From Alphaproteobacteria bacterium (lineage in GTDB: Bacteria; Pseudomonadota; Alphaproteobacteria; Rs-D84): a stretch of DNA of 64,000 bases. Of this stretch, positions 15,001 to 18,000 are shown piece by piece. Within the stretch, counting starts at the first letter, position 1. Every line of letters begins with the position of its first letter. The stretch lies in NCBI GenBank assembly GCA_029059055.1, contig JAIDWS010000004.1:18593-82592 (forward strand), in the 5' to 3' direction. Made by a program: the position numbers.

Positions 15001-18000
15001 GTCGGCGGTGTTCGATTTATTGTTGGAATTGGTGCGTAAAAACAAAATGGCCATGCTGTTTGTAACGCATGACATGAAATTGGCCGCGCGCGCCGACAGA
15101 ACAATCACCATCACAGACGGTGTCGTGCATTAATGAATATATATAGCAAAAAAGGGGGAGAGAGTCATGAAAAAAACAACAAAAACATCCGCAAAAGCAT
15201 CCGCTGTTGCATCCGCCAAATCGGCACCGCGCGTTGCGTGTTGCAGTACCCGGCAGAAAGTCTGGGGCATTATCGCATTGGCGGGATTGTTCACATGCGG
15301 ATTAATGATTGGGTTGGCAATTAATCGTCCCACTGTCAATGCGGCGCCCAATTATGCGGGTGATGCGGTGGCGGCACCGGCCGCGCCGAATGCCGATTTA
15401 AAACCGACATGCACCGTTATCGAAGAATTAATTTTCAGCAGAATCGTATCAGAAAATGACGACCGCCCATGGGTGCATCTGACGAATGCGGACAATTATG
15501 CAATTTTGGCAGAACGGGGCTGTCCGGAAAACGCGGAACATTACAAGAATATGGCCCTGCGTGAAATTGAAATCGCCAGCGCATTGCAGAGTGACCATGA
15601 TATGGCGGACGAAACCCAGACCGAATTTGTCATCGACACGTATAAAAAATTAAACATGCAACGCGAAGCGCGCGAATTCCTGGACAAGGTGCAAAAATTG
15701 ACCAATCCGGCCATTGATTTTATCTTGCAAATGGAACAGATTATCAACGAATAATCGGGATAGATAAACCGGGGGGACCATATGCACAAAGGAATAATTT
15801 TTTGTCTGATGATATTGTTGCCGGTTGCGTGCAATGCCGCAAACGTTGCCGAACGGGTTAAATGTGACGATGTCAAGGCACAGATTGATGCCATGGCATC
15901 GGATGAAAACGCGGATGCGGCACAGTTGGCAGAACTGCGCAATACGTATCGTAAAAATTGTGTGCGCAGTGCCGCCGGGCGTGCATCACGCACCATCGCG
16001 GTCAGTCGTGCGCCGGTTGCATCATCGGCCGATACGGGCGCCGGGCAATCGTGCGAACCGGATGAATATGGATGTTGCCCGGGCGAAGTATACACCGACA
16101 TGGGGGACGCTGGATTTAATTGTTGCCCCGCGTCCGGTGATGGCATGTGTTTTCAACCGATAAAGACGGCATCCCAACCCGCATCGACCGCCACGCCGGC
16201 ACCAACGGTTGGCGCGGTCTGTGACACACCGGATGAAAATGGATGCTGTCCGGATGAAATACTGATGGATATGGGTGAACAGGGGATGAATTGCTGTCCG
16301 AAAACGGGCGGTGATTGTTTCCCACCGATTAAATGATAATACCGGCAAATGCCGGTATTTTTTATTCTTGTTATACGACCAGAATAAAATTTGTTCGGTT
16401 GCGCATCTGAAAAAGATTCAGGGGGTCATCCGAAACCGAACAAAATACAGCCGCCAAAATTTCCATGGGGAAAAAGGCGGCCGGGGTGTTAGTAATATCA
16501 TCTAGAACAGTGATTTTGTTGGCCTTCCGGTTGCCCGTATTTTATAAACCAACAGCACCCCGACAATGCGGGACAATAACGGTGCGACGCGCCGCTTATT
16601 CTAACGATTACGATGCATTCGCACCGGTTCTAGATAAAGGCTTACTAATGCCCCTGAATCCACATCCCTGTGGATTCATTCCTAATGCTATCATGGTAAA
16701 AGCGAAATAACAATAAAAAACAACCAATGCAACAAACGCATCAACGCCGGCAAATAAATGTGTGGCGATTGCGTGTAAATGTGATATAATTATCCACGAC
16801 AGCGGGCGTTCCGCTGTTGGGCTTGATAACCCACATCAGGTGTCCGATTAATCGGGCAAAACCCAACACAAATAATCGGTTGGGGTGTCGTGAATATGTT
16901 GAATAAACGACGCAACGCCTGATGTTGTTATCAAACCCCAACCGCCTGATTACTGGTGGTTTTTTTGTTGGGGGAAAATAAAATGAAATGGTTTGTGTTT
17001 TATATAATGTTTCTGGTAACGCCGGCAATGGCCGATGTCGCCACGGTGGATTATGTCGCACGCCAGGATGCGGCGGTGGTTCACAAAACCGGGGATGAAA
17101 CCATCAGCGGTAAAAAAACGTTTACGGATATTCCCATGATTCCAACCGCGACTTTACCCGGTATGTAGGTGGTAACAGATGATATCCGTATTTCTGGTTT
17201 TGATGTTGGTGGCGACATCGGCGTGGGCCGATGTTTATCCGGCGGCAACTGCGGGATATGTTCGTGATACGTTTGCTGGGCATTTATGCGGGCTGTTCAA
17301 TACCGTGCCAGATGCCACGGCGGTCAATATGGAATATCTGTTGTCGGTGGTGGATATGTGTAATTCAGGGTTGGATGCTTTCGGTAATCTAATCTCTATA
17401 ACCAGTTATGGTACGTCACCCTATGCGACGAAGCATATGGCCAATACCCAGGCGGTTACCTGGGCGATGAATATGGTTTATGATTCTTTGTATAGTGTCG
17501 TCTTGCTATTGGATCCCAATTGGGCAGGATTTTGGACTTTTGATGGGCAAGAATTTCTGCCCGATGGTATATATTTTGCCCCGGGCTTTGGGTTGGCTAG
17601 GTCATCTTTATGGATGGATCAGAACGGGGGGGATGTAACGGTTGAGGTTCGATTTGCACTGTTGGATTCCACATCGGTATTCAGTTACGGGTTATCCCCT
17701 GATGCCAGATGTAATTTTAATGTCCATATTAATGATTATGCCCGGGTGGATGAAAATACCGTTGCCCGTGTTATTGAAACGGGTATGGCTGGGCAGCATT
17801 TGCTGTTCAAATATTCGCCAGATACGCAGTCGCACACGATAACCACGGTTTACAGCGGTGACGGGCGGGATCATCAGTTGTTTTTTGATGGGGAAGAGTT
17901 ATCGCCCGACATGACGATATGGGATGATGATTTATTTTTGGATGATAACTGGGCGCCGGGCATGCCTGTTTGTAATGCCTTTGGTCTGGGCAATTTTGCC

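Follow-up and report, generated by a model that had tools for sequence, protein, structure and literature searches.

A leader RNA with two alternative folds, one carrying an intact terminator, recurs in uncultured gut Alphaproteobacteria

The 64,000-nucleotide (nt) stretch analysed here (the window) comes from an Alphaproteobacteria bacterium of the order Rs-D84 (assembly GCA_029059055.1, contig JAIDWS010000004.1, positions 18,593 to 82,592 of the forward strand). On its plus strand a leader, L1, precedes two genes whose products have signal peptides or signal-peptide-like N termini (Table 1). L1 is a structured RNA close to its promoter that can adopt two mutually exclusive folds, both under selection, one of which places an intact terminator upstream of the genes. 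The window holds four copies, namely L1, L2, the divergent L3 and the orphan L4 on the minus strand, and more than 120 homologous leaders occur in uncultured gut Alphaproteobacteria (Candidatus Enterousia, order Rs-D84).

A first-pass annotation of the window had proposed for L1 a promoter, a 5′-terminal hairpin (P0), an enclosing long-range helix (P1), an internal hairpin (P2) and a switch of competing segments ahead of the terminator. Every L1 element that it listed is present where it had been placed; only the spacing between terminator and ATG has to be corrected, from 14 nt to 16 nt counted from the end of the U-run. A simple promoter scan does not report the L1 −10 element, which has no −35 match. 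L1 and L2 share the core GGTTGGRG-N50-CYCCAACC, of which the window has two occurrences where 0.00 would be expected.

The minimum free energy (MFE) fold of L1 (16798-16969; −75.7 kcal/mol) has a z score of −7.0, with none of 200 dinucleotide shuffles as good, and equals the first of the two conformers, the T-state. In this fold P1, a long-range helix of 15–20 bp, closes a four-way junction of P2, the seg1:seg2 helix and the hairpin P4, and the terminator is intact. The alternative A-state consists of an uninterrupted seg2:seg3 helix of 9–10 bp together with hairpin 2 (HP2), the loop and 3′ arm of which double as the P1b 3′ strand (16917-16925) in the T-state. The proposed overlap between seg3 and the 5′ arm of the terminator is real and consists of the letters AACC, and the terminator loses 4 bp in the A-state, leaving a remnant that reads as ACC/GGU only. 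A stem of that size should be too short for intrinsic termination.

Table 1. Positions of L1, its genes and the other copies of the leader in the window.
Feature	Position	Strand	Details
L1 extended −10 promoter element, TGATATAAT	16782-16790	+	From sequence; TATAAT-like box precedes P0 at matching register across the family, within the model consensus
L1 predicted transcript start	~16796-16798	+	Placed from the extended −10
L1 P0, 5′-terminal hairpin, 8 bp, loop GCGUU	16798-16805 with 16811-16818	+	MFE fold; 8/8 pairs compensatory in the family
L1 seg0, GGG	16819-16821, pairs with CCC 16936-16938	+	MFE fold
L1 P1a, UUGAUAAC with GUUAUCAA	16823-16830 with 16927-16934	+	MFE fold; most strongly covarying helix of the family
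L1 conserved CC between P1a and P1b 5′ strands	16831-16832	+	
L1 P1b, ACAUCAGGU with GCCUGAUGU	16833-16841 with 16917-16925	+	MFE fold
L1 P2 hairpin, GUCCGA-UUAA-UCGGGC	16842-16847 with 16852-16857	+	MFE fold; pairs covary
L1 seg1, CCCAAC (CCCAAC..C, to 16869)	16862-16867	+	Anti-antiterminator strand; seg2 partner in T-state
L1 seg2, GGUUGGGGU	16878-16886	+	Shared strand: partner of seg1 (T-state) or seg3 (A-state)
L1 P4 hairpin, conserved loop GAAUAUGUUGAAUAA	16885-16913	+	In both conformers; stem covaries
L1 HP2, local hairpin of the A-state only	16912-16928	+	Constrained A-state fold; pairs covary
L1 seg3, ACCCCAACC	16935-16943	+	T-state: 5′ part with seg0, 3′ part in terminator; A-state: whole with seg2
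L1 intrinsic terminator, AACCGCC / 8-nt loop / GGUGGUU	16940-16946 with 16955-16961; U-run to 16966	+	Terminator scan, MFE fold; 7-bp stem (16940-16961), then U7
L1 ribosome-binding site, GGGGG	16970-16974	+	
First L1-controlled gene (predicted)	16983 (ATG)-17168	+	61 aa; signal peptide and tail-fibre/baseplate-like N-terminal motif (Pfam BppL_N, E = 2e-8)
Second L1-controlled gene (predicted)	17179-18171	+	330-aa ORFan; signal-peptide-like N terminus, no Pfam family
L2, full member	48352-48603	+	z = −7.7; 125 bits
L2 P0	48363-48383	+	
L2 P1a	48390-96 with 48562-68	+	
L2 P1b	48400-08 with 48550-59	+	
L2 seg1; seg2; seg3	48501-09; 48513-22; 48569-78	+	
L2 terminator	48575-81 with 48592-98	+	
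L2 downstream gene	ATG 48626	+	
L3, divergent member, subfamily 2	18841-19090	+	Family model and folding; MFE fold of family architecture
L3 −10 box	18841-46	+	
L3 seg1, CCCUGAC; seg2, GGUCGGGGGG; seg3, CUCCCCGACC	18964-70; 18977-86; 19051-60	+	
L3 terminator	19057-62 with 19077-82	+	
L3 downstream open reading frame	19103-19690	+	Weak methyltransferase matches; N-terminal hydrophobic segment
L4, divergent member, subfamily 2	16444-16699	−	20 bits; family architecture, z = −5.8; back to back with L1

The first-pass annotation had also pointed to a homologous leader at 48328-48604 and suggested a covariance model and a metagenome search. The homology holds, L2 scoring 125 bits and L1 121.6 bits with the family covariance model (R1; 183 positions, 42 pairs), and the search uncovered a large family of homologues with conserved structure, together with their downstream genes. 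A pattern scan of the GTDB species representatives gave at least 119 loci, of which at least about 105 are true members, and the model finds 140 matches in the fetched loci. Among the matches listed, nearly all members are labelled as Candidatus Enterousia, ‘Rickettsiales bacterium’ or ‘Alphaproteobacteria bacterium’ metagenome-assembled genomes, and some genomes contribute several copies. The guts sampled are those of human, mouse, chicken, horse, goat and deer. One full member (L079, 5519-5715) lies on a contig from a ‘Bacteroides fragilis’ bin; the contig is probably alphaproteobacterial and mis-binned. Another (L125, 9520-9712; 123.5 bits) is on a 12-kb contig that IMG/VR classes as viral. 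We rejected a phage origin of the family, given that only one of eight viral-contig pattern hits is a true member and the other seven are chance matches.

Enterousia belongs to the order Rs-D84 of uncultured gut bacteria, most of whose genomes are below 1 Mb and lack both the tricarboxylic acid cycle and respiratory chains (PMC12306168). The window carries four leaders in 64 kb, and the fetched loci contain, besides the copy for which each was chosen, about one extra copy per 33 kb; from the latter, a rough and biased estimate, tens of copies per genome would be expected. The copies are not near-identical, the mean column identity across the family being 37%.

Read from 5′ to 3′, family members start with a TATAAT box, P0, seg0 (GGGG), the P1a 5′ strand, CC, a variable P1b 5′ strand and P2. 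The P1a 5′ strand is 7–8 nt long and differs in sequence in almost every copy. An A-rich linker leads to seg1 (CUCCAAC), a short loop, seg2 (GGUUGGAGG) and P4, whose loop motif GAAUA...(G/A)AAUAA is conserved and becomes an internal loop where a distal stem is inserted. The 3′ half comprises the arms of HP2, the P1a 3′ strand, seg3 (A/C-CUCCAACC) and the terminator (AACCACC...GGUGGUU-U5-7), with a Shine–Dalgarno (SD) sequence and start codon about 28 nt further on. L3 and L4 share a different P2 and P4 and, with the metagenome relatives L130 and L131, form a second subfamily on the same scaffold, in which P1a and seg1, seg2 and seg3 covary.

Evidence that both folds are maintained comes from covariation in a MAFFT alignment of 102 sequences (A2) and in a model-based alignment (A4). 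Cells of the T-state helices are paired in 93.3% of cases in A2, against 79.0% after shuffling, and 651 of them carry double changes, against 193; controls with slid strands reach 33–49%. The corresponding fractions in A4 are 96.1% and 77.2%, with compensatory changes in 35 of the 42 pairs and double changes in six of the seven seg1:seg2 pairs. All P0 and P1a pairs covary, as do those of P2, and the −10 box keeps a constant register in the homologues, which upholds the promoter, the two helices and the internal hairpin of the first-pass annotation. RNAalifold recovers P0, P1a, seg1:seg2, P4 and the terminator unaided.

Helices that exist only in the A-state (seg2:seg3 and HP2) are likewise paired more often than after shuffling (94.3% against 87.0%; 95.3% against 87.7% on a second test). 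Their covarying pairs include position 9 of seg2 with seg3 (GC 74, UA 20) and a pair in HP2 (UA 55, AU 37), and when column pairs are ranked by mutual information without supervision, the best pairs outside the T-state are an HP2 pair and the pair of seg2 position 9 with seg3. A search for tertiary contacts by mutual information brought up only T-state and A-state helices and, within the P4 loop, a mini-helix of two pairs. A kissing interaction between the P0 and P4 loops found no support in covariation and was discarded. An alignment-free measure of P1 complementarity could not separate own from cross matches (8.6 against 7.9) and is uninformative because G–U pairs and AT-rich flanks make noise; column-based counts were used instead.

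Because GGTTGG, CCAACC and the terminator arm formed part of the search pattern, the strongest evidence lies in 17 members that the model detected independently of the pattern. In these, seg1, seg2, seg3 and the terminator arm vary in concert, giving the seg1/seg2/seg3 combinations CUCCUGA / GGUCAGGAGGG / CCUCCUGACC, CUCCUGUC / GGCAGGAG / ACUCCUGCC and GCCAGUCC / GGACUGGAAG / CUUCCAGUCC. Such joint change is the signature of one strand bound to pair with two partners. These triple changes, along with the covariation of the A-state-only pairs, bear out the earlier proposal that seg2 pairs alternatively with seg1 or seg3. Since seg1, seg2, seg3 and the terminator arm must each complement two partners, no trans-acting factor is needed to explain why they hardly vary.

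Folding energies point to the T-state as the resting conformation. The full-length MFE structure combines seg1:seg2 with the terminator in 98 of 102 members, and the long-range P1 has at least 10 pairs in 101 of 102 (mean 19.6). Before the 3′ arm of the terminator is present, the T-state is favoured over the A-state by 9.1 kcal/mol on average across the 102 members; folding at four increasing transcript lengths always gives the T-state path as the MFE, seg2:seg3 being the MFE in at most one of the 102. Once the P1 5′ strand is barred from pairing, 69 of 102 members have the A-state as their MFE fold (mean difference −1.3 kcal/mol). Since blocking this strand favours the A-state, closure of P1 is the deciding event and the remaining switch is balanced around it. 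The riboswitch or attenuator logic of the first-pass annotation is thus supported, with the addition that P1, beyond the competition among seg1, seg2 and seg3, also decides the outcome. In these models termination is the predicted default, and read-through would require that P1 be prevented from forming.

A co-oriented SD sequence and open reading frame (ORF) begin within 45 nt of the terminator in 92 of 111 evaluable members (median 28 nt). A gap of this size leaves no room for another promoter, so the downstream genes would be expressed only by read-through. The proteins are mostly small (median 130 amino acids (aa)), and by a crude rule 69 of 102 have a signal-peptide-like N terminus; these are cysteine-rich. 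Fourteen belong to a family of ~60 aa that resembles a helix-turn-helix (HTH) protein. Seven match Pfam HTH_3 and five Flg_new, and an EcoRI-type methylase and GmrSD are among the single cases. L2 is followed by a 219-aa secreted ORFan. Among other leaders, L063 and L047 are followed by secreted proteins that resemble the 61-aa protein behind L1 and begin with ‘D(L/V)A(S/T)..Y(V/I)’.

As the first-pass annotation had noted for L1, there is no convincing leader peptide: in no frame does an ATG-initiated ORF reach seg2 in more than 26 of 102 members, and none is conserved. A leader-peptide attenuator was accordingly rejected, no conserved ORF overlapping seg1.

Some copies are arranged differently. 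Tandem arrays of two to five leaders are found at L119 (five copies, 2281-4183), L082 (three copies, 2371-3036), L090, L118, L027, L068 and L087; most of these copies carry a separate −10 box, and the stretches between copies contain no ORF. The family has its own promoter and terminator, as a trans-acting small RNA (sRNA) would, and a position independent of the next gene is seen for the orphan and tandem copies but not for the 92 of 111. Three natural 5′-truncated copies (L113, 6179-6358; L114, 357-535; L038, 2782-2955) have a TATAAT box about 20 nt before seg2 and are followed by a 64-aa ORF. Their transcripts, which would lack seg1 and the P1 5′ strand, are predicted to stay permanently in the read-through fold.

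We consider it reasonably probable that L1 acts in cis as a bistable 5′ leader, working as a conditional terminator that is OFF by default and switched ON by an input in trans. Its extended −10 promoter would drive transcription of L1, which would control the two secreted-protein genes that follow. In the T-state P1 (seg0 with the 5′ part of seg3, P1a and P1b) would be closed and the AACC of seg3 free for the terminator, stopping RNA polymerase at about 16966. In the A-state P1 would be open with its 3′ strand in HP2, and seg3 would displace seg1 from seg2; this antiterminator would take AACC from the terminator stem and let RNA polymerase read into the genes. The trans-acting input would act either by blocking closure of P1 or by stabilising a three-way junction of seg2:seg3, P4 and HP2. 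Most likely this input is an RNA-binding protein or a small ligand. The sensor is probably the P4 loop GAAUA...GAAUAA with the neighbouring junction, because this loop is the sole strongly conserved element that the dual pairing constraints leave unexplained.

Several observations weigh against this account. An effector that bound only P4 would have no obvious way of telling the two conformers apart, since both contain it, and the P4 of subfamily 2 (L3, L4, L130 and L131) differs from that of subfamily 1. Orphan and tandem copies with a −10 box of their own and no following ORF point to a free-RNA role for part of the family. The invariance of seg2, seg3 and the terminator in most collected members is in part ascertainment by the fixed pattern. 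The nature of the effector and the sign of the response rest on equilibrium energies, whereas real decisions are kinetic.

That last point bears on an alternative with the opposite sign, an OFF-type riboswitch or attenuator in which the T-state would be the effector-bound form. A ligand or protein would speed or stabilise closure of P1 and so cause termination, and otherwise the rapidly forming HP2 and strand invasion by seg3 would kinetically trap the read-through fold. The T-state does resemble a classical aptamer, with a multi-stem junction closed by P1 and an expression platform adjoining it. HP2 sequesters part of the P1b 3′ strand, and the slight advantage of the A-state without P1 (mean −1.3 kcal/mol) makes P1 closure decisive. 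The P1 helices of ligand-dependent riboswitches, however, are usually short and marginally stable, whereas P1 here has 15–20 bp. A T-state that is on average ~9 kcal/mol more stable, and is the MFE at every tested transcript length, should form unaided, and we therefore consider this alternative unlikely, if still to be taken seriously. The same predicted default, termination, would suit a model in which the terminated RNA of ~170 nt is itself the functional product, a multicopy trans-acting sRNA or protein sponge, with read-through incidental. Each copy comes with a −10 box and a terminator of its own, and both the ORF-less tandem arrays and the orphan L4, with no downstream ORF, fit such a role. 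Yet 92 of 111 copies lie at most 45 nt upstream of a co-oriented SD sequence and ORF, and those genes would have no other promoter. In addition, a selected antiterminator fold would be purposeless in a purely trans-acting RNA, and the T-state exposes no conserved single-stranded seed besides the P4 loop. A free RNA as the general explanation thus seems improbable to us.

Finally, the element could be a non-regulatory, portable promoter with a stabilising 5′ structure and a leaky terminator that spread with accessory genes, the alternative pairing being a by-product of repetition. The genes downstream are indeed heterogeneous and accessory (ORFans, XRE regulators, the methylase, GmrSD), and one copy is on a predicted viral contig, although true members make up only one in eight of the viral-contig pattern hits. 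At 37% mean column identity both folds are nevertheless kept through compensatory and triple changes, which requires selection on both and makes this explanation very hard to credit.

The remaining copies in the window add local detail. L2 contains an extra perfect stem-loop of ~70 nt (~48432-48500) between P2 and seg1 that is not present in other members. No ORF follows the terminator of L4, which may be a free RNA or a relic. The tRNA-Tyr 3′ end and a bidirectional terminator (18426-18475) are duplicated 180 bp downstream (18606-18657) with 80–94% identity, an arrangement that looks like an integration scar at the tRNA. L3 and its gene sit just past the second tRNA-Tyr-end copy.

The family could be a new class of RNA sensor and a main gene-control system of these sub-1-Mb gut symbionts, in which a bistable scaffold with an exchangeable sensor hairpin reads a global signal directly and switches the secretome and small HTH regulators. 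This is a tentative idea that we would not yet bet on. In subfamily 1 the exchangeable sensor would be the GAAUA...GAAUAA loop of P4, and subfamily 2 would use a branched P4; candidates for the global signal include a second messenger and a cue from host or partner. With tens of copies in each genome, one RNA switch would govern a few per cent of all genes. Those downstream mostly encode small secreted cysteine-rich proteins and small regulators, the genes likeliest to mediate contact with a host or partner. The family would open a way to identifying the first known regulatory signal of the Rs-D84 clade. It also provides a natural example of a whole-molecule two-state RNA, in which dual pairing freezes sequence while ordinary helices drift. 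What sets it apart is the near-complete re-pairing between states, the copy number in very small genomes and the link to secreted proteins. It is a large, well-supported orphan switch that can be tested by mutating seg1, the P1 5′ strand and seg2.

The first-pass annotation could not match L1 to a known riboswitch, and the Rfam check agrees: with Rfam 15, the window and 18 homologous loci yield only tRNAs at the gathering score. We found no description of this RNA in the literature on Enterousia, sRNA-Xcc1 or riboswitch candidates of gut Alphaproteobacteria. At a permissive threshold L2 matches sRNA-Xcc1 (RF02221) with 35.2 bits (E = 1.5e-4), against a curated 53, whereas L1 gives no match at E ≤ 10 and two typical members none at E ≤ 1. 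The likeness lies in the A-state of L2, with a G-rich closing helix, two inner hairpins, a UU..A linker and ACC, but the leader family lacks the integron context. We rejected kinship as superficial, the match being sub-threshold and confined to L2. A c4-a1b1 match on P0 (19.7 bits against a threshold of 46.7 bits) was treated as noise. Reading CUCCAAC and GGUUGG as integron attC-like sites was also rejected, as the variants CCUGAC and GUCAGG violate the AAC/GTT rule and the elements are far too closely spaced. So was a T-box leader, there being no T-box match at E ≤ 10, an uninterrupted seg2:seg3 helix of 9–10 bp and an unrelated gene context.

Among established mechanisms, the attenuators of the trp, his and phe leaders share the competition upstream of genes between a 1:2 anti-antiterminator, a 2:3 antiterminator and a 3:4 terminator. 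They differ in that the present family has no leader peptide and hence no ribosome sensing, P1 (15–20 bp) and the four-way junction deciding instead, and in that it controls secreted proteins and small regulators rather than biosynthetic enzymes. Attenuators governed by PyrR, BglG/LicT-RAT, ANTAR or TRAP resemble it in that a default terminator or an antiterminator would be set in trans across a regulon of leaders. The targets of such protein-dependent antitermination (RAT, ANTAR, PyrR and TRAP) gave no Rfam match, and the RAT sequence, paired hexaloop hairpins, triplet (G/U)AG repeats and PyrR loop that are generally known for these systems are not seen in the consensus.

The closest parallels in architecture come from SAM-I (four-way junction, OFF) and pbuE adenine (three-way junction, ON) riboswitches, which also have a covarying junction and a closing helix whose 3′ strand competes with the terminator, and which likewise occur in many copies and tandem arrangements. 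As in a riboswitch, the present leaders combine a covarying structured sensor domain with an expression platform in which terminator and antiterminator pairing are exclusive. They depart from the SAM-I and pbuE types in matching no Rfam riboswitch and in a gene context that hints at no ligand; their P1 is far longer than that of known aptamers, and nearly every helix re-pairs between states. These RNAs form a new family in the already established class of terminator/antiterminator leaders.

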